The position numbers were made by a program, and so were the translations under genes. This document shows, piece after piece, positions 1-13,089 of a stretch of DNA of 64,000 nt; position 1 is the first letter of the stretch, and each line of letters opens with the position of its first letter. The notes below the pieces were generated by a model. It did not search any database. It saw only the letters and a list, made by a program, of their open reading frames with translations, and had not been told where the DNA came from. The stretch is from Clostridiaceae bacterium (lineage in GTDB: Bacteria; Bacillota; Clostridia; Christensenellales; CAG-138), in assembly GCA_039683415.1 (NCBI GenBank), contig JBDKRL010000008.1, positions 527 through 64,526 on the forward strand. Reading direction: 5' to 3'.

Positions 1-1
1 G

Positions 2-3000
2 CTGGCGGTAGGCATTGCGACCATGACGGTCGGCTCGCTCGGTTACAACGGTACTTATGACGGCGATCCGCATGACCTTGTGGCAACTGCGAGCATCGAC
101 GGCATGACGATTCTCTACAGCGCGACTGAAGGCAGTGGTTACAGCGAGGACTGCCCGAGCTATACAAACGCCGGAACGTACACCGTCTACTTCAAGGCGG
201 TTGACCCGGACGGCAACTATGCCGACGCGACGGGCAGTGCGGATATCGTAATCACCAAGGCCGTACTCACGGTGACGGCGGATGACCGCTCCATGACCTA
301 TGGAGATATGGCGTCGCTTACCGCGGAAGGCGCAAGCTACAGCGGATTCGCCGATGGCGACAGTCTGTCGAACATCGGTATGACCGGCAGCGTCACCTTC
401 GGATACTTCGCCGGAGCGACATCTGTCACGGTAGATGCAACCCTCGGCGCAGGCGGCTACACGATCAAACCGAACGTGAGCGCGCTGAGCTCGGCCAACT
501 ACACGTTCACTCCGGGTAACGGAACGCTGACGGTAAACAAGGCGATCATGACGGTTGGCGCAATCGACGTGACCCACGTCTATGACGGCACGGCTTACAG
601 CGTCATCGCCAATGCAATACCGGATGATCCGAACACGGTGATCTACTACAACACCACCGGCGGAACGATGCTCTCCGACTACTTTGAGGAGATTCCGGAA
701 GCGATTGATGTTGCGGACAGCACCCGCGTCTACTTCCTCGCGGTGAACCCGAACTACGAAGACGCGACAGGCAGCGCAATGCTGACGATCACGCCGGCAG
801 TGATTACCGTGACTGCGGACAACCGCAGCATGACCTACGGCGACACGACGACGCTGACCCCCGCGGAAGGCGTTACGTATGCCGGTTTCGTCAATAGCGA
901 AACCAGCAGCGTCATCTCCGACGCGGGCAGCATTACCTATACGTATCAAGAAGGCGCAGCGCTCGTGACGGTGGATAACACCCTCGACGCCGGCGGCTAC
1001 TCGATCATCCCGGGTGTTGGTGGGCTCTCGGCTGCGAACTACTCGTTCGTGCCCGGCAACGGCACGCTGACGGTGAACCGTGCAACGGGTCTTGCGATCA
1101 ACGCGACATCGTACAACGAAAAGTACGATGGCGGGGAGCATGGCATTGGAACATCGCCGACGCCTGCGGAAGGCACGACGCTGCTCTACAGCCTCACGGG
1201 AGGCACGAACCTCTCCGCTTATACGCTCACGAGCAATCCGATGTTCAAGAACGCTATGAGCGCAAAGACCGTCTATGTTGCGGCGGTGAACGACAACTAT
1301 GTCACCGTGTTTGACCAGGCGACGGTTACGATTGCACGACGCACCATCAAGCTGGCTTCGGACAGCGAAACCCGCCCCTATAACGGATCGCCGCTGAGCC
1401 TGCCGGATGTGGCGGTTACCGGTGACGGGTTCGTTACAGGAGAAGGCTTTGTAACGGATCCGCAGTCAACCGTTTCCATCACCAATGTTAGCAGCGTGAC
1501 GAACGCATACAGCTACCCCGCCTTCATTCCGGGAACGAACGTGGACAACTATGCGTTCCAGAAGACGGAAGGCACGCTGGAAATCACAGCGGTTGAAGTC
1601 ACGGTGACCGCCGATGATCAAAGCATGACCTATGGCGATTCCTCCGCAACTCCGGCGGCAGGCGTCAGCTACAGCGGCTTTGTCAACAGTGAGACAGCGA
1701 GCGTTGTCTCCGGCACGGTTGGGTACAACTACTACGACGGTGCGACGGAAGTGTTCATCGGCAGTACGCTCGGCGCTGGCAGCTACGACATCACGCCGGA
1801 CCTAAGCGGCATTACCGCAACGAACTACACGTTCAAAGCGGCCGATGGCACGCTGACCGTCAACCCGGCTACGATGGAAGTCACGTCCGACGGATATAAC
1901 GAACTCTACGACGGCGCACCGCACGGACTGGAAGCGGAAGTGACCGGGCTGACCGGCATGACGATCACATACAGTGATTCCGTAACCGGAACATTTACGA
2001 ATGCGTCGCCTGAGTATACGAATGTCGGCACATACACCGTCTACTTCAAGGCGGTTGATCCGGACGGCAACTACGCCGATGCAACGGGCAGCGCACAGAT
2101 CATCATCCGCAAGGTGCAAGTCACGGTCACGGCGGACAACCGCATCATGACCTATGGCGACACCACGACGATGACCCCGGCGGAAGGCGTGACCTACGCT
2201 GGCTTCGTCAACGGCGAGAACGCAACGAGCGCAGGCGTAACGGGTCTTGTGAACTATTACTATTACGATAGTTTATGGGAGCTGGTTGGAGTGAGCAATA
2301 CGCTTGATGCGGGAATCTACACCATTAAACCGAGTGTGTTCTGGCTCTCTGCCGCGAACTACACGTTCGTTCCCGCCGACGGCACACTGACGGTGAACAA
2401 AGCGACCATGACGGTCGACTCGAGCGGAACACTTGCCGTGTATGACGGCTTCCCGTATGACCTTACAGCAACTGCGAGCGTCGACGGCATGACGATCCTC
2501 TACAGTGCGACAGCAGATGGCACGTATGGGTCGGTTTGCCCGTCCTATACAAACGCCGGAACGTACACCGTCTACTTTAAGGCGATTGACCCGGACGGCA
2601 ACTATGCCGAAGCGACGGGACATGCGGATATCGTAATCACAAAGGCTGTACTCACTGTGAGGGCGATTGACCGCTCCATGACCTATGGAGACATGTCCTC
2701 GCTTACCGTGGAAGACGCAAGCTTCAGCGGGTTTGCCTTTGGTGACAATCTCTCCAACATCGGCTTGACCGGCAGCGTCGGCTACTACTACTTCGACAGT
2801 GCGACGTTAGTAACAGTGGATGCGACGCTCGACGCAGGCAGCTACACGATTACCCCGTACGTGGGCTCGCTGAACTCGGCCAACTACACGTTCGTCCCGG
2901 CTGACGGAACGCTGACGGTATCTCCGGCGACGATGGAAGTTACGTCTCTTGGGTACGAAGACTACTATGACGGCGCGGCGCACGGTCTGACGGCAAGCGT

Positions 3001-6000
3001 GACAGGCCTCAGCGGCATGACGATCACCTACAGTGATTCGCCGAGCGGAACCTTCACCAGCGCGTCGCCTGAGTACACGAATGCCGGAACGTACACCGTC
3101 TACTTCAAGGCGGTTGATCCGGACGGCAACTATGCCGATGCAACGGGCAGCGCCGAGATCAACATCCGTCAGGTGGAAGTCACCGTGACGGCGGACGATC
3201 AGAACATGATGTATGGCGACACGACCGCTCCCGCGGAAACCGTTTCCTACAGCGGTTTTGTCAACGGCGAGAACGCAACGAGCGCGGGCGTGACGGGCGA
3301 TGTGCTCTACAGCTACTATGACAGCCTGATGTATATGGTTGCCGTAAGCAGCACGCTTGACGCAGGGCTGTACACCATCACCCCGGACGTGGGCGGGCTG
3401 AGCGCAACGAACTACTCGTTCGTCCCGGCTGACGGCACGCTGACGGTGGCTAAATCCGACGCTCTGGATGTGAGTGCCGACGATGTGGAAGCGCCTTACG
3501 ACGGATTTCCATACATGGTGAGCCCGAACGTAAACGACTGGAATGGCACCGATGTCTGGTACAGCCTGACCGACAGCACGGATCCGGCGGATTACTCGAT
3601 GACGCCGCCGTCGCTTGTGAATGTTGGCGACAGCGCTAGGGTCTACCTGATGGCGACGAACCTGAACTACGAAAACGCCTTTGGCAGCGCGCTGGTCACG
3701 ATAACGCCGGTGGAACTCACCGTTACGCCGGATGATCAGTACATGATCTATGGCGACACAACCTTGCCTGCAGAGAGCTCTGTTATTACGGGCTTTGTCA
3801 ACGGCGAGAACGAAACGACTGCCGGTGTCAGTGGTTCGATTGACTACAACTACTTCGACGGCACAACGCCGGTAACGGTCAGCAGCACGCTGCCTGCCGG
3901 AGACTACACCATCGAGGTGGGGCTCAGCAATCTTACCGCCCCGAACTACACGTTCACCAACGCGTCTGGCGCGCTGAACGTTGCCAGGTCGGAATCGTTG
4001 ACGGTGGACGCAACCGACATCAGCGAGATGTACAATGGCGGAACCCACATGGTCACGCCGCTTGCAAGCGACATGTCCGCCGATACGACCATCTGGTACA
4101 GCCTGACCGACAGCACGGATCCCGCGGACTACTCGACAACGCCGCCTGCACTTGTCAATGTTAGCGACAGCGCGACGGTCTACCTGATGGCGACGAACCC
4201 GAACTACTACCCGGCGTTTGGCGAGGCGGAAGTTGATATCACACCGCGTACGATCGCGATTGTCACCAACGGCGCAAACAAGGTCTACGACGCAACGCCG
4301 CTGACCGATAACGGCTGGAGTCTTGGTGCCGGCAACGATGGGTTCGCCAGCACCGAGGGCTTCCTGAGCGCAGAAGCCGTAGGCACGATTACGAACGCTG
4401 GTTTTGTGTTCAACACGTTCGACTACACGCTCACGAGCAATACGCTGCCCGGCAACTATGACTTCGATATCACGGAAGGCGTACTGATCATTAGCGCGCG
4501 GCCTGTCATAGTTGCGCTTGATCCGGCGGAGAAGAACTCCGGCGATCCTGACCCGGCATTCACCTTCCATTATCTGACGTTCCCGGGACTCTACGATGTA
4601 TTGCCCGGAACCGGTGCTACGGTGAACCTGATCAGAACGGACGCTCTGGCGGTCACGAGTGAGGATATTGGCGTTCATACCGATGTGCTGAGCATCAATG
4701 TCGTCTTTGCTGACGCGACTGCGGCAAGCAACTACGCGATTGTTCCTCAGAATGCCGACTTCACAATCCACCCGCAGGTGACGTACAACCTCGACACGCT
4801 GGACGCCGTTACCGGCTTCCCGGCGACGGAATGGTTCGACTATCTGAGCGATGCGACCATTGCGGATGCAACGGGTGTTGCCCGCCTTGGCTACGTACTG
4901 ACCGGATGGACGGACGACCTGACTGGCGATCCGATCGCTCTGGGCGAGACGATTACCGGCATCGACCGCAACTACAGCCTGACCGCTGTTTGGGAACTTG
5001 CCAGGTATAACGTGTTCTACAATGCGAACACTGCCATGGACGTCAACAACATGCCGGGCACGCAGGTGAACATTCCTTACACGAGCCTGACTGCTCTGTC
5101 CGACCGTGTTCCGACCCGCGCGGGCTTCACCTTCGTCCATTGGGATACGGCGGAAGTCCCCGGCCAGATCTCCTACGATCCGGGCGAAACGTTTACAATG
5201 CCCAACAGCGACGTAACGTTCTCCGCGGTTTGGGAACCCGACCTGACGCCTGTGTACTATCACGCGAACGGCGGCGTTGGCGGAACGATTGAAGACGGTC
5301 CGTTCGGAACGCTCACCACGGTGACCGTTGCGGGCAACGGCTTCACGAGACCCGGCTATCGCTTCATCGGCTGGAGCACCACGCCTACCGGCGCAGTCTC
5401 CGCACAGCCCGGCGATACCTTCATGATGCCGATTCTGCAGGTGAACTACTATGCGCAATGGGAGCAGGTGCTCTACACGGTGACGTACATCGTCAACGGC
5501 GGCACGACGGCCGGCCTGGATGGCGCGGTGCCGTACGCGGAATACACGGATCTTGCCTATGGCGACGCGATGCCGGTACCGGCTGATCCTGCGCAGGACG
5601 GCTACACCTTCGCTGGCTGGACTACGGCAGTCCCGGCGACCGTGCCCGAGGGCGGACTGACGATCTACGGCACGATGACCGAGAATACGCCGGAGATCAT
5701 CCCGGATGAACCCACCCCGCTGGCCGGCGCATCCTGGGCGCTGCTCAACCTGATTCTTGCCATTGCCACAGCGCTCGGCTCCGTGCTGATGCTCATCGGC
5801 CTGATCGGCAAGAAGCGTAAGGAAGAGCTCGAAGGCGTGGTTGTGCGTGAGACCAAGAAGCACCCCGTTACCCGGCTAATGACGCTGCTGCCCGCGATTG
5901 GCGGAATCATCGCCTTCATCCTCACGGAGAACATGAAGAACCCGATGACGTTCGTCGACCGCTGGACGATCCTGATGGCGGTCATTGCGGTACTGCAGAT

Positions 6001-6061
6001 CGCGCTCGTGATCCTCGGCGTCAAAAAGGACAAGGAAGTTGATCCCGAATCCGCCAAGTAA
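2..6061 (+). CDS. Giant repetitive cell-surface protein (MBG-like domains alternating with ~80-aa Ig-like repeats, 4 InlB B-repeat-like domains, C-terminal membrane anchor); 5' truncated by the window edge
   Basis: The frame is open from base 2 through ATG 23 to TAA 6061. It has seven VTVTADDRSMTYGD...GTLTV units, four YTN(A/V)GTYTVYFKA(V/I)DPDGNY units and four Y..N...G(Y/F)...GW-type repeats. It ends in PDEPTPLA followed by three hydrophobic helices. Confidence 0.9.
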   Translation: MAVGIATMTVGSLGYNGTYDGDPHDLVATASIDGMTILYSATEGSGYSEDCPSYTNAGTYTVYFKAVDPDGNYADATGSADIVITKAVLTVTADDRSMTYGDMASLTAEGASYSGFADGDSLSNIGMTGSVTFGYFAGATSVTVDATLGAGGYTIKPNVSALSSANYTFTPGNGTLTVNKAIMTVGAIDVTHVYDGTAYSVIANAIPDDPNTVIYYNTTGGTMLSDYFEEIPEAIDVADSTRVYFLAVNPNYEDATGSAMLTITPAVITVTADNRSMTYGDTTTLTPAEGVTYAGFVNSETSSVISDAGSITYTYQEGAALVTVDNTLDAGGYSIIPGVGGLSAANYSFVPGNGTLTVNRATGLAINATSYNEKYDGGEHGIGTSPTPAEGTTLLYSLTGGTNLSAYTLTSNPMFKNAMSAKTVYVAAVNDNYVTVFDQATVTIARRTIKLASDSETRPYNGSPLSLPDVAVTGDGFVTGEGFVTDPQSTVSITNVSSVTNAYSYPAFIPGTNVDNYAFQKTEGTLEITAVEVTVTADDQSMTYGDSSATPAAGVSYSGFVNSETASVVSGTVGYNYYDGATEVFIGSTLGAGSYDITPDLSGITATNYTFKAADGTLTVNPATMEVTSDGYNELYDGAPHGLEAEVTGLTGMTITYSDSVTGTFTNASPEYTNVGTYTVYFKAVDPDGNYADATGSAQIIIRKVQVTVTADNRIMTYGDTTTMTPAEGVTYAGFVNGENATSAGVTGLVNYYYYDSLWELVGVSNTLDAGIYTIKPSVFWLSAANYTFVPADGTLTVNKATMTVDSSGTLAVYDGFPYDLTATASVDGMTILYSATADGTYGSVCPSYTNAGTYTVYFKAIDPDGNYAEATGHADIVITKAVLTVRAIDRSMTYGDMSSLTVEDASFSGFAFGDNLSNIGLTGSVGYYYFDSATLVTVDATLDAGSYTITPYVGSLNSANYTFVPADGTLTVSPATMEVTSLGYEDYYDGAAHGLTASVTGLSGMTITYSDSPSGTFTSASPEYTNAGTYTVYFKAVDPDGNYADATGSAEINIRQVEVTVTADDQNMMYGDTTAPAETVSYSGFVNGENATSAGVTGDVLYSYYDSLMYMVAVSSTLDAGLYTITPDVGGLSATNYSFVPADGTLTVAKSDALDVSADDVEAPYDGFPYMVSPNVNDWNGTDVWYSLTDSTDPADYSMTPPSLVNVGDSARVYLMATNLNYENAFGSALVTITPVELTVTPDDQYMIYGDTTLPAESSVITGFVNGENETTAGVSGSIDYNYFDGTTPVTVSSTLPAGDYTIEVGLSNLTAPNYTFTNASGALNVARSESLTVDATDISEMYNGGTHMVTPLASDMSADTTIWYSLTDSTDPADYSTTPPALVNVSDSATVYLMATNPNYYPAFGEAEVDITPRTIAIVTNGANKVYDATPLTDNGWSLGAGNDGFASTEGFLSAEAVGTITNAGFVFNTFDYTLTSNTLPGNYDFDITEGVLIISARPVIVALDPAEKNSGDPDPAFTFHYLTFPGLYDVLPGTGATVNLIRTDALAVTSEDIGVHTDVLSINVVFADATAASNYAIVPQNADFTIHPQVTYNLDTLDAVTGFPATEWFDYLSDATIADATGVARLGYVLTGWTDDLTGDPIALGETITGIDRNYSLTAVWELARYNVFYNANTAMDVNNMPGTQVNIPYTSLTALSDRVPTRAGFTFVHWDTAEVPGQISYDPGETFTMPNSDVTFSAVWEPDLTPVYYHANGGVGGTIEDGPFGTLTTVTVAGNGFTRPGYRFIGWSTTPTGAVSAQPGDTFMMPILQVNYYAQWEQVLYTVTYIVNGGTTAGLDGAVPYAEYTDLAYGDAMPVPADPAQDGYTFAGWTTAVPATVPEGGLTIYGTMTENTPEIIPDEPTPLAGASWALLNLILAIATALGSVLMLIGLIGKKRKEELEGVVVRETKKHPVTRLMTLLPAIGGIIAFILTENMKNPMTFVDRWTILMAVIAVLQIALVILGVKKDKEVDPESAK

Positions 6062-6079
6062 CGAACCCGGCACATAAGC

Positions 6080-6114
6080 AAAAGCGGCGCCTCCAAAAAG
6101 GGCGCCGCTTTTTT
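6080..6114 (+). terminator. Rho-independent terminator after the giant surface protein gene
   Basis: AAAAGCGGCGCC-loop-GGCGCCGCTTTTTT. Confidence 0.85.
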
Positions 6115-6459
6115 CGGCGTTTCGGCAATTTTTTGTTAAAAGCGCATTGCGACTAATCTGCTGCAAGAAAGAGGCATTGATGCATCCATGGCAAAAACAG
6201 ACGGGTTTCTCAGTTTGACCACCTGCGGCAGCGGCTTTCCCAATGAGGGGATCATAGCACAACCCGACGGCAGTTTTGCGGAAACAGAAGGTGACAGAGC
6301 CAGAATCAGTTACTGCGCGTAAAAAGATTCTTACACTGTATCTTGTATATTCATGAAATACAACCACAACATTCGGCGTAGATTTGATACAATGTAACAT
6401 GAAACGGCGAAAATGCGCGAGTTTTTAGTTTTTGCGTGATGTTTTGCGGTAACAATTTG

Positions 6460-6489
6460 TTGCAATGTTGTAATTTACGGCTGTATAAT
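6460..6489 (+). promoter_or_regulatory. sigmaA-type promoter of the transglutaminase/pil operon, probably leaderless
   Basis: TTGCAA-N18-TATAAT lies 6 nt before ATG 6496, with no Shine-Dalgarno sequence. Confidence 0.6.
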
Positions 6490-6495
6490 CGGTAC

Positions 6496-7419
6496 ATGGA
6501 GAAACGGTCGACGGCCGGACGGCTGCAACAATGGATTCCGCGGCTGCTGATTTTCGGCTTCATCTGCCTGTTCGCGTGCTCAAAGACCCCGACGCGCGCG
6601 GTTTTGCAAGAGGAGACCGTTTCCGATGACGCGCCCGTAGCTCTGGCCGGAAATACGCCCGCTGCCGATGAAACGGCAGACAAGCTGCTGCTTCCGGAAG
6701 CTTCCGGAACGGTTGTATACGAAGGTCAGGGCGTTACCATCGACGCTTCCCACACGGATCAGGGATATGTGATGATTCGCTGCGAGCAGACCGAGAAGCG
6801 CCTTAAAGCGCGTGTTTCGACCAGTGCGCAGACGTATTACTACGATTTGCCGAGCGGGGAAGACTACAGCGTGTTTCCGCTGCAAATGGGCGACGGCGAC
6901 TATACGTTGCGCATCATGGAGCAGGTGGAGGACGACCTCTACGCCGTTCGCTACAGCGTGGATATCGAAGTTGCGCTTGCAGACGAGACGATTCCCTTTT
7001 TGTACCCCAGTCAGTATGTCTGGTACGACGCTGAAAGTGACACGGTTGAGACTTCCCGCGAGGTGACGGGTGAGTTGACGGACGAAGAAAAAATCGTAAA
7101 AGCCTGCTACCGCTTTGTGGTTAATCACATTGCGTACGATACCCAAAAGGCCAAAACGGTGGAAAGCGGATATCTGCCCAATGCGGATGAAACGCTCGAA
7201 ACCGGCAAAGGCATCTGCTTTGACTACTCGGTGCTGCTGGCTGTCATGCTCCGCTCGCAGGGAATTCCGACTCGCGTTGTGATTGGCATGGTGTCGCCGG
7301 AAAATCTTTACCACGCCTGGAACAGCGTCTACCTCGACGGCGAATGGGTCTGGATGGACCCGACGCTCGACGGCATGGGTCATCGCGAGAGCGATTATGT
7401 GACCGAGCGCATTTACTAG
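6496..7419 (+). CDS. Transglutaminase-like domain protein, probable lipoprotein (putative cysteine protease or transamidase)
   Basis: N-terminal hydrophobic stretch ending in LFAC; triad motifs GICFDY, YHAWN and WMDPT. Confidence 0.85.
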   Translation: MEKRSTAGRLQQWIPRLLIFGFICLFACSKTPTRAVLQEETVSDDAPVALAGNTPAADETADKLLLPEASGTVVYEGQGVTIDASHTDQGYVMIRCEQTEKRLKARVSTSAQTYYYDLPSGEDYSVFPLQMGDGDYTLRIMEQVEDDLYAVRYSVDIEVALADETIPFLYPSQYVWYDAESDTVETSREVTGELTDEEKIVKACYRFVVNHIAYDTQKAKTVESGYLPNADETLETGKGICFDYSVLLAVMLRSQGIPTRVVIGMVSPENLYHAWNSVYLDGEWVWMDPTLDGMGHRESDYVTERIY

Positions 7420-7497
7420 CGCTGCCAAAGCCGCAAATAACAGCGAAAACGGGCAGGCCAAGGCGACAACGTTTCTGGCAAGAGAGGGAAAAACGGT

Positions 7498-8553
7498 ATG
7501 ACGGACGAAACAAAACAAAAAACGCTCCCGCCGGAAGAAACGGCGCTCTTTTGCGAGCAGGTGGCAATGGTGCTCAAGGCCGGTATTCCTCTCAGCGACG
7601 GTATGGAAACGCTGGCCAAAAGCTATGCCGACAGCCGCTACGGCGCGCGCTTTCTGCAGATTCAGACCGCGCTCGAACGGCGCGGATCGCTCTCCGGCGC
7701 GCTGGAGGACGCGGGGATCTTCCCCAAATACCTTTGCGCCATGGTGCGTATCGGCGAGCGGGCGGGCAAGCTGGACGAAGTGATGACCTCGCTTGCGAAT
7801 TACTACCAATGGGAAGCGGATATCCGTATCTCCGTAAAAAATGCGATTCTTTACCCGACCGTGCTGGTGATGATGCTGGCGGTGGTCATTGCGATATTGG
7901 TCATCAGCGTGCTGCCGGTATTCCAGCGCGTGTTCGACAGCCTGGGACTGGCGGCGGGGGCGCCCGCAAGCGCAGCCATGCGCATCGGCGTTGGCGTTGG
8001 CAAAGGGATGCTCGTGCTGGTCGGCGTGTTTGCGGTACTGCTCGTAGTGATCGGGATTTCTCTCAAATCTTCGCGCAGGGAATCGGTGCTTGCGTTGCTG
8101 TCCCGGTTTTTACCGCCGGTTCGGCGCGTCATCGCCCGGCTCTCCGCAGCGCGGTATGCCACGGTGCTTTCGATGATGCTTTCCGCGGGGTATCCGCTGG
8201 AAGATGCCATCCGTCTTTCGCCGACGGTCATTTCGGACGCAAAGTTCCGTGAGAAAGCGGAGCTGAGCGCGCAAAAGCTTAAGCAAGGCGCGTCGTTTGC
8301 GGATGCTGCGGAAGCAAGCGGGCTGTTTGAACCGATGCACGAAAAGATGATCCGCTTCGGTTCGGCAGCGGGTAAGCTGGACGCCGTGATGGAAAAAATC
8401 GGTACTATATATATGGAAGAAGCGGACGAGGCGATCCACGCCGTTGTTTCGATGATTGAGCCGACGCTTGTTGCGGTGCTTTCCATCGTGATTGGCGGGA
8501 TTCTGCTTTCGGTTATGCTGCCGCTGCTCTCGGTACTGTCGGCAGTGGCGTAA
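7498..8553 (+). CDS. Type II secretion system F family / PilC-like platform protein
   Basis: Two T2SSF repeats (LFCEQVAMVLKAGIPL...GERAGKLDEVM and LSMMLSAGYPL...GSAAGKLDAVM), each followed by TM helices. Confidence 0.92.
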   Translation: MTDETKQKTLPPEETALFCEQVAMVLKAGIPLSDGMETLAKSYADSRYGARFLQIQTALERRGSLSGALEDAGIFPKYLCAMVRIGERAGKLDEVMTSLANYYQWEADIRISVKNAILYPTVLVMMLAVVIAILVISVLPVFQRVFDSLGLAAGAPASAAMRIGVGVGKGMLVLVGVFAVLLVVIGISLKSSRRESVLALLSRFLPPVRRVIARLSAARYATVLSMMLSAGYPLEDAIRLSPTVISDAKFREKAELSAQKLKQGASFADAAEASGLFEPMHEKMIRFGSAAGKLDAVMEKIGTIYMEEADEAIHAVVSMIEPTLVAVLSIVIGGILLSVMLPLLSVLSAVA

Positions 8554-8555
8554 GG

Positions 8556-8750
8556 GGACTTTTTGGAGGCGCTGCCTCCAAACCACCGCTCAGGGCCTAG
8601 GCAGCCCTGAGAACCCGCCGGAGCTCAGCGAGGGTTTCCAAAGGGCGTACCCTTTGGCGGGAGCTCGAGGGCGGAGCCCTCGAATAAGTTCGGGAGCTCG
8701 AGGGCGGAGCCCTCGAATAAGTTCCGGAACGCGAAAACGGAGCCCTCGAA
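8556..8750. repeat. REP-like palindromic element cluster (family 1) with an exact 33-bp tandem duplication
   Basis: GGGTTTCCAAAGGGCGTACCCTTTGG core plus the hairpin TCGAGGGCGGAGCCCTCGA; 8658-8690 is identical to 8691-8723. Confidence 0.8.
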
Positions 8751-8791
8751 AATCAATAGGAAGTTTTTATCGGAAGGAGGGGAACAAAGCC

Positions 8792-9121
8792 ATGCATTTG
8801 TATGAAAACCGGCGTAGTGCCAACCGTGGTCTGATTGCCGCGGGCGCGATCTTTCTTGCGCTGATCCTGCTGTTTAGCGTCGCTCTGCTCTCCGCCTCCA
8901 AAAGGAACGCGGCGCAGGAAACGGAGTTGCTCGACAGCGCGATCAGGCGGGCGGTTGTCACCTGCTACGCGGTCGAAGGCAAGTACCCGCCGAGCCTCGA
9001 TTATCTCTATAAAAACTACGGCGTGTATGTCGACGAAAGCCGGTATGCCGTGTTTTACGATGTGTTCGCGGCAAACGTAATGCCGTCGCTGACGGTCACG
9101 GCGATCGGGGGTGGCCGGTGA
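8792..9121 (+). CDS. Small pilin-like / pseudopilin-like protein
   Basis: SD AGGAGG; basic N-terminus, then Gly and a single hydrophobic helix; coupled to downstream genes. Confidence 0.7.
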   Translation: MHLYENRRSANRGLIAAGAIFLALILLFSVALLSASKRNAAQETELLDSAIRRAVVTCYAVEGKYPPSLDYLYKNYGVYVDESRYAVFYDVFAANVMPSLTVTAIGGGR

Positions 9122-9624
9122 TGGAGCGCTCGAATGCTGTGCGGGACGCGCGCGGGGATATCCGCGGCGTATTCGTGTTTGCGTTGCTTGCGGCGTTTGC
9201 CGTGCTCTCGCTCGTTGTGGTGGTCGTTGGTGCGCGCTCGTACCGGGCGATCTACCAGGCTTCTGACGAGGCACTTTCCTACCGCACGGGCATGAGCTAT
9301 CTGATCGGCAAAGCGCGCGGCGCGGACGAAGCGGATATGCTGCAAGTGCGTTCGGAAAACGGAACGGACGTCCTCGTGCTCGGCAGTCTCTATGAAAACG
9401 AGCGCTACAACACCTATATTTACTGCAAAGACGGCGCGATTTTGGAGTATTTTGCCGCGGATACGCAGGCGTTTGACCCCGGCTACGGCGAAGAGATTTT
9501 GCAGGCGCAGGAACTGCACTTTACGATTGCTCAGCAGATGCTCACGATTTCACTGACGGATGCTTCCGGGAACACGTATGTTTCCGAGGTGCAGCTTTCC
9601 GCGGCGGGAGGGGATGCTTCATGA
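9118..9624 (+). CDS. DUF4860-like pilin-type protein
   Basis: IRG|VFVFALLAAF helix, GARSY, YLIGKARGAD and YNTYIYCKDG motifs, as I recall them from the DUF4860 family. Confidence 0.72.
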   Translation: MMERSNAVRDARGDIRGVFVFALLAAFAVLSLVVVVVGARSYRAIYQASDEALSYRTGMSYLIGKARGADEADMLQVRSENGTDVLVLGSLYENERYNTYIYCKDGAILEYFAADTQAFDPGYGEEILQAQELHFTIAQQMLTISLTDASGNTYVSEVQLSAAGGDAS

Positions 9625-10043
9625 ACGAGCGGCCATTGAAACCCCTAAAAAAGCGCGGCATGTTCAGCCCGGTGCTCATTGAGCTTTCCATCGTGATTCT
9701 GTTTTTCGCGCTCTCGACGGGCATCGTCGTGCAGCTCATCGCGTCTGCGAGCAGAATTTCGAACGAAAGCACGTTTCATTCGCAGGCATTGCTGGCAATG
9801 GAGACCGTCGCCGAGGAAACGAAGGCCGACCCGGAAGGGGACGGCGCGTTTGACGAGTGCGGCGTACGCGCGTTCACTAAAGCAGTTTCGGAACAGATCA
9901 CGGTGGAAGGCGTCGTCACCCGCGACGAAAGTCCGGAGAACGGAACGCTGTATACCATCGATTTAAGCGTACTCTCGGCGGAAGGAACGGCCTATACGCT
10001 GTCCGCCATGCGCTACGTTTCAACGGGGGAGGTACTGCCGTGA
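9621..10043 (+). CDS. Pilin-like / type II secretion pseudopilin-like protein
   Basis: KKRG|MFSPVLIELSIVILFF N-terminus; ATGA overlap with the upstream gene. Confidence 0.7.
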   Translation: MNERPLKPLKKRGMFSPVLIELSIVILFFALSTGIVVQLIASASRISNESTFHSQALLAMETVAEETKADPEGDGAFDECGVRAFTKAVSEQITVEGVVTRDESPENGTLYTIDLSVLSAEGTAYTLSAMRYVSTGEVLP

Positions 10044-10462
10044 AGAAGTATCCTTCCCGAATGGGTGTTGGCGCATCGAGCATCCTGCTCATCCTCGTCG
10101 TGGTCAGCTTGACGCTGTTTGCCGTGCTTTCTCTGGTGCAGGCAAGGGCGGATGCGGCGCTGACGGAGAAAACCGCATTGAGCGTGAGCGCGTTTTACGA
10201 CGCGGACGCGCGTGCCCAGCAGATGCTTGCCCAGCTTGACGGCGCGATTACCGCAGGTCAGGACCCGACCGCGATCGACGGGGTCACGCGTACGGGAGAA
10301 AACGAATACGCGTTTACTATCGGTTCATTCGACGGGCATACGTTGGACGTAGCCATGCAGGTTGAAAACGGACGCGCGGATGTGACGCGCTACCGCTACG
10401 AAAGCGCGCAGGAGTGGGTCGGAGAAAGCACGGATACGGTTTGGCAGGGAGACGGAGCATGA
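10040..10462 (+). CDS. Pilin-like membrane-anchored protein
   Basis: RMG|VGASSILLILVVVSLTLFAVLSL helix; GTGA overlap. Confidence 0.68.
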   Translation: MKKYPSRMGVGASSILLILVVVSLTLFAVLSLVQARADAALTEKTALSVSAFYDADARAQQMLAQLDGAITAGQDPTAIDGVTRTGENEYAFTIGSFDGHTLDVAMQVENGRADVTRYRYESAQEWVGESTDTVWQGDGA

Positions 10463-11532
10463 CGGAGATTGGTGAAATCCTCAATATAGCGATACAAACG
10501 GGCGGCTCGGATGTGTTCATCATTCCCGGAACGCGCGTTTGCATCAAGGTGTCCGGCGCGGTGCAGCCCATGATGCAGGACGCGGTGCTCAAGCCCGACG
10601 ATACGCGCCGGCTGATCAAACAGGTGTACGAACTGGACGGGCGTGATATGGCGCGCCTGCTCGACCACGGAGACGACGACTTTTCGTTTTCCGTCAGCGG
10701 CGTGGGGAGGTTTCGGTGCAACGCGTATAAACAGCGCAACTCGCTTGCCATGGTGTTGCGCATTGTCTCGCTGAACCTGCCCGACCCGGAAGCGATGCAT
10801 ATCCCAAAGGAAGTGCTCGATCTTTCGACCGTTAAAAAGGGCCTCGTGCTGGTGACCGGCCCTGCCGCAAGCGGAAAATCGACCACGCTGGCCTGCGTGA
10901 TCGACCGCATCAACGCTTCCCGCAGCGGGCACATCATCACCATTGAAGACCCCATCGAGTTCATCCACCCGCATAAAAGGAGTGTCGTTTCCCAGCGGGA
11001 GATTGAACACGATACGGACAGCTATCAATCCGCGCTGCGCGCCGCGCTGCGGCAGGCGCCAGATGTGATTCTTCTGGGGGAGATGCGGGACTTTGACACC
11101 ATTCAAACCGCGCTGACCGCGGCGGAAACCGGCCAGCTCGTGCTCAGCACGCTCCATACCGTTGGAGCCGCAAAGACGATTGACCGCATCATCGACGTGT
11201 TTCCCGCCAACCAGCAGCAGCAGATTCGCGTCCAGCTCTCCATGGTGCTGCGCGCGGTGGTCAGCCAGCAGCTGCTGCCGACGCTGGACGGGTGTCTGGA
11301 ACCCGCGTTTGAGATTATGCTTGCCAACAGCGCGATTCAAAACATGATCCGCGACGGCAAAGCGCATCAAATGGACAACGTGATCTTTTCCGGCATGGAG
11401 GACGGCATGCGTTCTATGGATGCGGATATTTTCCGCCTCTACGAAGCGGGGCGCATCAGCGCGGAAACTGCGCGCCTGTACGCTTCCAATCAGGAAATGA
11501 TGAAGAAAAAATTTGCAGGCTATAAGAGTTAA
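10459..11532 (+). CDS. pilT: PilT/PilU family type IV pilus ATPase
   Basis: Walker A GPAASGKST, Asp box TIEDPIE, Walker B PDVILLGEMRD, His box GQLVLSTLHT, AIQNMIRD helix. Confidence 0.92.
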   Translation: MTEIGEILNIAIQTGGSDVFIIPGTRVCIKVSGAVQPMMQDAVLKPDDTRRLIKQVYELDGRDMARLLDHGDDDFSFSVSGVGRFRCNAYKQRNSLAMVLRIVSLNLPDPEAMHIPKEVLDLSTVKKGLVLVTGPAASGKSTTLACVIDRINASRSGHIITIEDPIEFIHPHKRSVVSQREIEHDTDSYQSALRAALRQAPDVILLGEMRDFDTIQTALTAAETGQLVLSTLHTVGAAKTIDRIIDVFPANQQQQIRVQLSMVLRAVVSQQLLPTLDGCLEPAFEIMLANSAIQNMIRDGKAHQMDNVIFSGMEDGMRSMDADIFRLYEAGRISAETARLYASNQEMMKKKFAGYKS

Positions 11533-11643
11533 CCGAAGAATTTGCCGGGCAGCGCCCGAAAACCAGATAACGAAAAATCGAGCCGGGTAGCGCCCGAAAA
11601 TATGTTTTTGAACTCAAGCGACGCAACAGGAAGGAAGGTCGGC

Positions 11644-12891
11644 ATGTCCCAAACAAAGATAAAAATCAAAATGTTCGGCAATTTTGAAATTATTGTCAAC
11701 GGAAACGTGGTGCTCTCTCAGCTCCGGCAGGCAAAAAAAACCTGCCAGTTTCTGGAGTACCTGATCCTCAAAAAGGATCGCGCGGTACCCCACGAGGAAC
11801 TGCTGGAGATGCTCTGGTCGGATAAAGAAAACAGAAATCCCGCCACCGCGCTCAGGACGCTTTTGCACCGCTACCGCTCGCTCGTGGACGAAAGCGGCCT
11901 GCCGGAGCTTGCGGAATCCATTTTGACCGCGCGCGGCGCGTATCAGTGGAACCCGAACCTCGACTGCGAAATCGACGTGTTCAAGTTCGAGCAGCTCTGC
12001 CAGGAGGCAAGGACGCCCGGCATGTCCAACCGCGACTGCATCGAGCGGTATCTGCAGATGCTGCAGATCTATACAGGGCCGCTGCTCACCAATTCCGCCG
12101 AAGAGATGTGGGTCGTGCCCAAGAGCGTGTATTACCACGACCTCTTTTTAGAGAGCGTGTTTACGCTGCTCGATCTGCTCAAAACGGAAGAGGAGTACGA
12201 TATGATTGTCCAGGTCTGCCGAAAGGCCATGGACGTGGATATGTTCGACGAGCGGCTGCATCTTGAGCTCATGATGGCGCTGGTGAAAACCGGCAAAAAG
12301 CGCGAGGCGCTCTCGCAGTACTATTTTGCCACCGACCTGCATTATAAACAGCTCGGCATCCAGCCCTCCGGCGAGATCCGCGCGGTATACAAACTCATCG
12401 TCCAGGCCGATCAGGAGATGGAAGCGGATATCGAAAAAGTGCAGGGCATGCTCGAGGAGGATTCGGACACCCACGGCGCGTTCGTCTGCGAGTATGAAAT
12501 CTTCAAGGAGATCTATCAGCTCCAGCGCCGCATGCTCGAGCGCTATAACGGCACGATGTTTTTAGCGCTTTTAACCATCAGCAACACCTATGAGCAGCGC
12601 TTTGACAATCTGGTTCTCGACAACATCATGAAGCAGCTGCTGCATGTTTCGCAGTCGAGTCTCCGGCGCGGGGACACGATTTCGCGCTACAGTGTCATGC
12701 AATACGTCGTGCTGCTGCCTTCGGTCACCTACGAAACGGGGCGTCTCGTCATGGATCGTATCAAAAAGGCGTTCTATCAGGAATACGTCAAATCCTCGGT
12801 GGTGCTGACCTATAAACTGCGACCGCTTTGCATTAATAAATACGAAACACCAACCCCGAAACGCGTCAGCGAGCCGCGTGCGGACACCTGA
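11644..12891 (+). CDS. SARP-like transcriptional activator (wHTH + BTAD) with a C-terminal degenerate GGDEF domain
   Basis: IKMFGNFEI...LEYLIL...EELLEMLW...LRTLLHRYR wHTH; BTAD segment DMFDERLHLELMMALVKTG; C-terminal LRRGDTISRYSVMQYVVLL. Confidence 0.85.
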   Translation: MSQTKIKIKMFGNFEIIVNGNVVLSQLRQAKKTCQFLEYLILKKDRAVPHEELLEMLWSDKENRNPATALRTLLHRYRSLVDESGLPELAESILTARGAYQWNPNLDCEIDVFKFEQLCQEARTPGMSNRDCIERYLQMLQIYTGPLLTNSAEEMWVVPKSVYYHDLFLESVFTLLDLLKTEEEYDMIVQVCRKAMDVDMFDERLHLELMMALVKTGKKREALSQYYFATDLHYKQLGIQPSGEIRAVYKLIVQADQEMEADIEKVQGMLEEDSDTHGAFVCEYEIFKEIYQLQRRMLERYNGTMFLALLTISNTYEQRFDNLVLDNIMKQLLHVSQSSLRRGDTISRYSVMQYVVLLPSVTYETGRLVMDRIKKAFYQEYVKSSVVLTYKLRPLCINKYETPTPKRVSEPRADT

Positions 12892-12906: not shown

Positions 12907-12933
12907 AACGGAAGCCAAACGGCTTCCGTTTCT
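12907..12933 (+). terminator. Probable terminator hairpin
   Basis: AACGGAAGCC-AAAC-GGCTTCCGTTTCT. Confidence 0.6.
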
Positions 12934-13089
12934 CGTTTGGCGCCTGCTTATATGAGAAAGCGCAGGCGCGCTGCGCGCGCAAAAAGTCGTAATGGATTAC
13001 TGCTTTTGCCCGTCGGAATCAAAGCGGACTTCGGTGGGGAACCGCGTTGAAAAAAGGCCGAAAAAGGCTGCGATTCCCACGGGGTTCGA

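Follow-up and report, generated by a model that had tools for sequence, protein, structure and literature searches.

A candidate two-unit regulon joining a giant FILTED-anchored adhesin and a type IV filament-like operon under a SARP-GGDEF regulator in a Christensenellales bacterium

The window analyzed in this study is a 64,000-nucleotide stretch of DNA from a Christensenellales bacterium (contig C8, positions 527–64526; genome of 3.2 Mb, 93% complete), at the start of which the gene of a giant repeat adhesin is followed by an operon for a pilus-like machine, a lipoprotein enzyme, and a regulator that combines a DNA-binding activator of the SARP type (short for Streptomyces antibiotic regulatory protein) with a degenerate GGDEF domain. 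The adhesin ends in a membrane anchor, the FILTED domain, and the machine and enzyme genes are referred to below as the cassette. All of the window features described here lie on the plus strand. The nine co-oriented genes recognized in the first-pass annotation were all present and annotated essentially as it had described, with two gene starts corrected: the enzyme gene begins at 6496 rather than at a GTG at 6436, and the regulator gene begins at 11644. The 3′ two-thirds of the adhesin gene (2–6061) is separated from the operon by the strong intrinsic terminator that had also been noted before (about 6084–6111; hairpin GCGGCGCC...GGCGCCGC plus T6), the hairpin of which is also listed as a minus-strand reading of the same palindrome. 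The operon consists of eight genes (6496–12891) and is closed by a further intrinsic terminator identified by hairpin search (12907–12940). In a search of sequencing runs, the window sequence was found mainly in wastewater metagenomes.

The giant protein contains seven MBG_2 domains, Listeria-Bacteroides repeats, and Big-like repeats, as assigned by Pfam and NCBIfam, and its C-terminus (5735–6040) matches the FILTED domain model NF052597 with 114.6 bits against a cut-off of 40, in agreement with the sequence and the alignments. Its reading frame is open at the edge of the window and contig. Contig C20, in reverse complement, shares a perfect 127-bp overlap with the beginning of C8, and the join yields an adhesin of 3,642 amino acids with a Sec signal peptide, which confirms the earlier description of a repeat surface protein of more than 2,000 amino acids; the promoter and the first 1,489 codons lie on C20 (reverse strand, 1–4470). 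The length of 3,642 amino acids is a minimum, because a k-mer-sized overlap within repeats could conceal more repeats. The break in the assembly falls within the repeat region of the adhesin.

The FILTED anchor comprises three transmembrane helices, and every one of its conserved motifs, WALLNL, FILTE(N/D)M(R/K)NPM, and D(R/K)WT, is placed at the outer face of the membrane. A PDEPTPLAG motif precedes the domain in the giant adhesin, and a conserved (D/E)xxTPLAG lies just outside the first transmembrane helix in many FILTED proteins, several others being without TPLAG. No RTX repeats were found in the adhesin by Pfam. FILTED-anchored giant proteins are common in Clostridia of the gut and of digesters, including relatives of Christensenella, Faecalibacterium, Gemmiger, and Ruthenibacterium, and a literature search found no published function for the domain. 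FILTED proteins occur in Actinomycetota and Chloroflexota as well. One locus of an uncultured Gemmiger sp. (L139) holds four tandem FILTED genes on the same strand, encoding proteins of 751–1,793 amino acids, at a great distance from the cassette of that genome.

The first gene of the operon (6496–7419) encodes a lipoprotein with the lipobox LFAC and a transglutaminase core (PF01841, 85 bits), which also matches PF04473 and PF13471. It had been described as having a Cys-His-Asp triad. The fold, Cys241, and His273 stand, both residues being invariant in 70 homologues; the Asp is less clear, with D in 42 of the 70 in a column where the alignment is uncertain. A sequence search of the PDB with this protein returned 4XZ7, 3ISR, and 6G49 and did not detect LapG; the nearest solved relative, 4XZ7, is described as a Streptococcus suis transglutaminase.

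The second gene (7498–8553) encodes a PilC/GspF platform protein with two repeats (PF00482, 155 bits), the sole T2SSF homologue detected in the genome by tblastn. The seventh (10459–11532) encodes a PilT-family ATPase, which scored 402 bits against the TIGR01420 cut-off of 319 and far under the cut-offs for PilB, GspE, and ComGA. At least 90% of 70 cassette ATPases conserve the Walker A and B motifs, the Asp and His boxes, and the PilT motif A..N.IR. No second ATPase of the T2SSE family, including PilB, was detected in the genome by tblastn, so the PilT-type ATPase is the sole motor. PilT-type ATPases are retraction motors. Further, no match to the prepilin peptidase family Peptidase_A24 (PF01478) was obtained in this 93%-complete genome, as against 12 of 14 control genomes with a match; the usual processing of the four small proteins of the operon would therefore be impossible.

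These four proteins had all been described as pilin-like. Each has the N-terminal helix, and membership in a family with a prepilin motif can be demonstrated only for the product of 9621–10043, termed sp3; none of the four window proteins matches N_methyl. The sp3 protein, a degenerate type IV pilin, retains the Glu of the helix (LIE) while the remainder of the prepilin motif is eroded in the window copy; its orthologues in other cassette types start with KKG|FTLVE and score above the N_methyl cut-off (34.4 and 27.3 bits). The first of the four, sp1 (8792–9121), has an N-terminal transmembrane helix and a conserved CYA.EG.YP motif and was found in every cassette surveyed. It is followed by a DUF4860 protein (9118–9624; PF16152, 76.8 bits), the AlphaFold2 model of which (pLDDT 87) consists of a 60-residue N-terminal helix and a beta domain. 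Its best Foldseek matches were the GspJ-type minor pseudopilins EpsJ and XcpW (probability 0.98–0.99, TM-score 0.45–0.50), with non-significant E-values, and the model rests on a shallow alignment because the homologue search reached same-genus relatives only. The fourth protein, sp4 (10040–10462), is minor-pilin-like by alignment, with an N-terminal G.G..S..L, a conserved YY.AD motif, and no Glu. By its gene content, the cassette is a relative of type IV filament machines, lacking a prepilin peptidase and having PilT as its only motor. A literature search retrieved nothing relevant on transglutaminase-like proteins with type IV pili in Clostridia, or on PilT of Christensenella.

The gap between the PilC and sp1 genes contains 2.8 tandem copies of a 33-bp unit (8658–8750) with the hairpin CTCGAGGGC-GGA-GCCCTCGA. 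The genome has about 49 copies of this hairpin, frequently as arrays of 32–35-bp units, which identifies it as a family resembling repetitive extragenic palindromic elements; it was accordingly rejected as an element specific to the operon.

The last gene of the operon (11644–12891) encodes a one-component regulator composed of a SARP module, that is, a winged helix-turn-helix (wHTH) and a BTAD domain, followed by a stalk helix and a degenerate GGDEF domain. BTAD was matched with 64 bits (PF03704), and the wHTH domain with 25.4 bits against a cut-off of 26.2 (PF00486). In the AlphaFold2 model (pLDDT 83.8), the first ~260 residues match AfsR and EmbR (Foldseek E = 1e-10), and residues 280–395 match the GGDEF domains of many diguanylate cyclases (TM-score 0.55–0.70; root-mean-square deviation 2.2–3.6 Å). 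Sequence searches agree in finding this tail weakly GGDEF-like, and one homologue has a precomputed PF00990 call. Neither an EAL match nor a predicted transmembrane helix was found in the regulator. The motif R341-x-x-D344 is invariant in 30 regulator homologues down to 45% identity, is kept in at least 80% of a homologue set at 25–30% identity, and stands exactly five residues before S350-V-M-Q-Y354, which occupies the GG(D/E)EF position. This is the canonical register of the inhibitory site (I-site) for cyclic di-GMP (c-di-GMP) beside a dead active site (A-site). The proposal of a regulator with a degenerate GGDEF domain was thus borne out, and the regulator probably senses c-di-GMP through its putative I-site. 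No other SARP is detectable in the genome. The same genome encodes 19 ordinary GGDEF domains, and c-di-GMP signalling is therefore expected to be active in the organism. Between species of the genus (loci L031–L050), the regulator is 91–98% identical and the four small proteins are 50–65% identical, which may mean either that the regulator is under unusually strong constraint or that the exposed subunits evolve fast. To our knowledge, few c-di-GMP-responsive transcription factors are known in Clostridia, and our literature search found no description of a SARP activator that reads c-di-GMP by a degenerate GGDEF I-site.

In promoters targeted by SARPs, direct repeats are spaced by 11 or 22 bp, and 8 bp separate the 3′ one from the −10 element (PMC10936776). 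The operon promoter (6449–6489) consists of three direct repeats, GTAAC (6449), GTTGC (6459), and GTAAT (6470), at a spacing of 10–11 bp, followed after 8 bp by TATAAT (6484–6489). Phylogenetic footprinting over 17 species revealed the conserved arrangement GTAAC-N5-GTTGC-N6-GT(G/A)AT, 8 nt, TATAAT, 6 nt, ATG, together with an invariant distal ATGTAACA box at about −102 (6392–6399). The promoter is unique in the genome at up to two mismatches. In 17 of the 17 species aligned, only 6 nt separate the end of the −10 element from the ATG of the enzyme gene, and the operon transcript is for this reason probably leaderless at its first gene. The adhesin promoter, compared between C20 and seven relatives, contains conserved G(C/T)AA(C/T) repeats in two pairs, with a spacing of exactly 11 bp within each. 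One pair lies at about −192, and the other, present in seven of the eight species, has a 3′ member that ends 8 bp before TA(T/C)AAT (AAAGCAAC-N4-ATGTAAT). Boxes of the adhesin type also precede FILTED paralogues that are unlinked, in four sister species, as well as a FILTED gene of a second family (L153). At the sequence level, the SARP promoter rule fits both the operon promoter and the FILTED-gene promoters, and these SARP-type repeats make the co-regulation of operon and adhesin a well-supported prediction.

The string GCAAC-N6-GTAA(C/T) occurs seven times in the genome: two copies are in the adhesin promoter, one is on contig C4, and the rest are in coding sequence. The copy on C4 (433–766) belongs to a perfect adhesin-type box (ATGCAACGGATATGTAACGA, 8 nt, TATACT) before the gene of an 89-amino-acid membrane-anchored protein with no family match, which may belong to the regulon as its third member. 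The genome also encodes a second giant surface protein (4,659 amino acids; C1:300222–315294), with a single C-terminal transmembrane helix and no FILTED domain, and its gene is directly 3′ of a diguanylate cyclase gene. A ATGTAACA box lies 17 nt before its start codon and another lies 530 nt upstream. We did not use ATGTAACA as a marker of the regulon: this 8-mer has 22 genomic copies, among them those in the operon promoter, in the adhesin promoter, and at the 4,659-amino-acid protein gene, where the site is probably in the 5′ untranslated region.

To compare the cassette between genomes, about 20 kb around the DUF4860 gene was surveyed in 75 genomes, with genes labelled by purpose-built profiles. 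A core of seven genes (enzyme, PilC, sp1, DUF4860, sp3, sp4, and PilT) is conserved across the order. In type A cassettes the enzyme gene is first and the PilT gene last, usually with the regulator gene adjoining; in type B (L074, L078–L088) the PilT gene is first and the enzyme gene last, without a regulator; and in type C (L092–L098) there is no PilT gene nearby. Type B and C cassettes have no SARP regulator, occur in genomes without FILTED proteins, and encode a pilin with the canonical KKG|FTLVE prepilin motif. Among cassette genomes, FILTED proteins track the regulator-bearing type (14 of 15, vs. 12 of 40; p = 2e-5). At three loci (L138, L141, and L183), the regulator gene is directly 5′ of a FILTED gene with no cassette nearby.

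The first-pass annotation had regarded the linkage between the adhesin and the operon as only positional. The repeated adjacency of the two units, their promoters, and a co-occurrence far above chance indicate that it is more than this. In a sample of 401 genomes of the order, DUF4860 was found in 17 of the 19 FILTED-positive genomes, against a base rate of 60/401 (15%; Fisher p = 1.5e-13), and by genus in 9 of 11, vs. 38 of 174 (p = 2e-5). A class-wide sample of 400 genomes gave four of five FILTED-positive genomes, against 35/400 (about 9%; p = 2e-4). When the FILTED gene was not beside the cassette, 26 of 30 such genomes carried a cassette elsewhere; carriers of both in unlinked positions include Gemmiger, Ruthenibacterium, Bittarella, Zongyangia, and Christensenella hongkongensis. 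Three cassette-less genomes of the same genus are without any FILTED copy as well, even the unlinked second copies found in their relatives. In 6 of 11 genera, the distance between a FILTED gene and the cassette is no more than 12 kb, for which the chance expectation is about 1e-7. The neighbourhood check suggested earlier found the cassette enriched next to surface proteins with the same anchor, and the lack of enrichment that would have spoken against a link was not seen. The FILTED gene may be upstream and co-oriented, as in the window, convergent downstream, or divergent with the regulator gene in between. As the arrangements differ, linkage appears to have been retained repeatedly rather than inherited as one block. 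An identical ten-gene order was found in Anaerofustis (L180) and in another taxonomic order (G743, L193). Not every FILTED protein near a cassette is giant, as some have 300–450 amino acids; the association is therefore with the anchor and not with protein size. Large open reading frames also occur beside cassettes without FILTED genes; several encode real surface proteins with signal peptides and other anchors, and many are artefacts on the antisense strand in a genome of high GC content. Taken together, these genome comparisons show the cassette, the regulator, and FILTED proteins to occur together and in clusters across Clostridia, and FILTED to be a general anchor that in this class, as judged from gene content, is preferentially and not obligatorily coupled to the cassette. 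No paper on DUF4860, on the FILTED domain, or on the combination of adhesin, cassette, and regulator was found in our literature search.

We propose that the FILTED adhesin and the filament-machine operon form a two-unit regulon of this Christensenellales bacterium under one SARP-GGDEF activator, a reading to which we assign a probability of about one half. The first unit would be the Sec-exported adhesin of 3,642 amino acids, held in the membrane by its three-helix FILTED domain, and the second would provide the PilC platform, one eroded pilin, three minor-pilin-like proteins, the PilT motor, the enzyme lipoprotein, and the activator. The regulator would activate the adhesin gene or genes as well as its own operon, resulting in positive feedback, and would do so on binding of c-di-GMP to the conserved I-site, probably by promotion of the dimer required on direct repeats. 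SARPs form a side-by-side dimer on such repeats. Activation of both units and of the regulator itself by the SARP, under c-di-GMP control by the I-site, is what we infer from what is known of these protein families. The machine may build a short, unprocessed pseudopilus that spans the wall and cooperates with FILTED proteins in their positioning, display, or turnover, and the lipoprotein enzyme may act on FILTED proteins or pilins on the outer side of the membrane, which is where the conserved FILTED motifs are placed. Such action of machine and enzyme on FILTED proteins is speculative; the sole structural hint is that the conserved motifs share the outer face with the lipoprotein and the pilin domains.

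Several observations weigh against the proposed regulon, and some of them would also be expected if the adhesin and the machine were co-regulated parts of a surface or sessile programme that are mechanistically independent, the machine making its own fibre or secreting other cargo and never contacting FILTED proteins. This is a possible alternative, to which we give real but lesser weight. In the order sample, 43 of 60 cassette genomes have no FILTED protein, and the machine must therefore have a function independent of FILTED. Two genomes (G247 and G784; 96–97% complete) contain FILTED proteins with neither cassette nor regulator, so that any dependence of FILTED on the cassette is not absolute, and in G233, the only pilus locus of which is a canonical PilB/PilT/PilC one, the regulator gene immediately precedes a FILTED gene. 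The pairs of regulator and FILTED genes without a nearby cassette and the presence of an unrelated small membrane protein in the predicted regulon point in the same direction. On the other hand, FILTED genes away from the cassette are still nearly confined to cassette genomes (the 26 of 30 given above), and the outward-facing FILTED motifs fit a docking surface better than a plain anchor. Genome G404 has a FILTED gene beside a cassette without the regulator, which counts against both readings. The p-values given above overstate independence, since the sampling is phylogenetically uneven. As for the promoters, the repeat consensus is short, and the operon repeats (GTAAC/GTTGC/GTGAT) differ from those of the adhesin (GCAAC/GTAAT). 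GTAAC-type repeats were not found in operon promoters of the Christensenella group, and upstream of 20 FILTED genes of other lineages repeats were found only at same-genus loci and L153; the regulon claim is for this reason limited to the genus and one second family. Finally, the search of sequencing runs found the window sequence in DNA metagenome runs only, and in no RNA run.

Two other explanations concern the nature of the machine and of the enzyme. The cassette could be a DNA-uptake (Com-like) or type II-like secretion device, with the adhesin its neighbour through a shared mobile or variable island. Its content of a platform, a small ATPase, one pilin, and minor pilins does resemble comG or the pseudopilus of the type II secretion system (T2SS), and the ten-gene block shared between different orders suggests block transfer. 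We nevertheless consider this explanation unlikely, given that adjacency recurs in several arrangements rather than as one transferred block, that the phyletic coupling extends to FILTED genes away from the cassette, that the promoter architecture is common to both units, and that no prepilin peptidase was found in the genome, in an analysis that included no search for DNA-translocation genes. A release switch like that of the Pseudomonas Lap system, in which the enzyme would cut the adhesin close to the membrane, at TPLAG for instance, and so shed it under c-di-GMP control, appears very improbable. The invariant catalytic Cys and His, the position of the enzyme as a lipoprotein on the outer face, the (D/E)xxTPLAG motif just outside the first helix in many FILTED proteins, and the I-site of the regulator would all suit such a switch. 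However, the enzyme belongs to PF01841 and LapG to PF06035, the nearest solved relative 4XZ7 being described as a transglutaminase; the enzyme gene shares the operon of the activator, so that the enzyme would be made alongside the adhesin rather than at a falling signal; it is a core cassette gene also in genomes without FILTED; and TPLAG is absent from several FILTED proteins.

Beyond the two-unit regulon, we tentatively consider a more specific version of it, which we hold to be rather doubtful: FILTED may be the cargo tag of a new display pathway of monoderm bacteria, in which a PilT-driven, peptidase-independent pseudopilus and the lipoprotein recognize the outward-facing FILTED motifs and then position, cross-link, or extract giant adhesins through the wall, with the SARP and c-di-GMP as the switch. 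The proposed regulon bears on the display and regulation of FILTED-anchored giant proteins and thus on the surface attachment of gut and digester Clostridia, and with its defined promoters, single regulator, and cultured carriers, among which the non-pathogenic Ruthenibacterium lactatiformans, Bittarella massiliensis, and Zongyangia hominis are candidate hosts, the module is open to direct experiment. If the regulator works as suggested, the SARP-GGDEF fusion would constitute a new class of c-di-GMP receptor, and SARPs would reach well beyond the control of antibiotic production in actinomycetes. If this widespread machine runs on a PilT-type motor without prepilin peptidase, it would provide a test of whether a retraction motor alone can assemble or operate a filament.

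Compared with known systems, the machine shares with the type IV filaments of monoderm bacteria (type IVa pili of Clostridium and Streptococcus sanguinis, and ComG) and with the T2SS pseudopilus a PilC/GspF platform, a T2SSE-family ATPase, one N_methyl pilin family, as seen in the orthologues, and GspJ-like and GspK-like minor subunits. It differs from them in the absence of PilB/GspE, prepilin peptidase, and PilMNO from the window machine, in its sole ATPase being of the PilT type, in the eroded pilin motifs of the window lineage, and in the transglutaminase-core lipoprotein as an obligatory companion. The regulator has the wHTH and BTAD fold of the SARPs AfsR, ActII-ORF4, and EmbR, and its candidate promoters have 11-bp direct repeats 8 bp from the −10 element as theirs do. 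Its host is a member of the Clostridia, whereas theirs are actinomycetes, its predicted targets are surface-protein genes rather than antibiotic clusters, and its C-terminal sensor is a degenerate GGDEF domain in place of a NOD/TPR or FHA domain. With the I-site receptors PelD and PopA it has in common the GGDEF fold, the dead A-site, and the conserved RxxD five residues upstream, but here the putative receptor domain forms a fusion with a DNA-binding activator. The adhesin clearly belongs to the NF052597 proteins, as its score attests, and what is new is the coupling of this anchor to the DUF4860 cassette and the SARP-GGDEF regulator.

The first-pass annotation had suggested a Firmicute functional analogue of the Lap system, and this did not hold: none of the three defining Lap features was found. 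The enzyme is assigned by Pfam to PF01841 and has no match to the LapG family (PF06035/DUF920); the regulator, having neither an EAL match nor a predicted transmembrane helix, is not a membrane GGDEF-EAL receptor of the LapD type; and the adhesin, with its Sec signal peptide and three-helix FILTED anchor, is not a LapA-type RTX adhesin exported by a type I secretion system (T1SS) and held by an N-terminal retention module. What the two systems share is a giant adhesin, an extramembrane Cys-His enzyme of the transglutaminase/papain superfamily, and a degenerate-GGDEF protein that is likely to read c-di-GMP. In the window system, the receptor would be a soluble activator using its I-site, whereas LapD reads the signal by its EAL domain; LapA is plugged in an outer-membrane pore, whereas the window adhesin would be anchored in the membrane of a monoderm host; and a pilus-like machine is present in addition. 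The likeness to Lap is conceptual only. The nearest kinds of known system are the type IV filaments of monoderm bacteria and the Com and T2SS pseudopili for the machine, the SARPs and PelD/PopA for the regulator, and the NF052597 proteins for the anchor.

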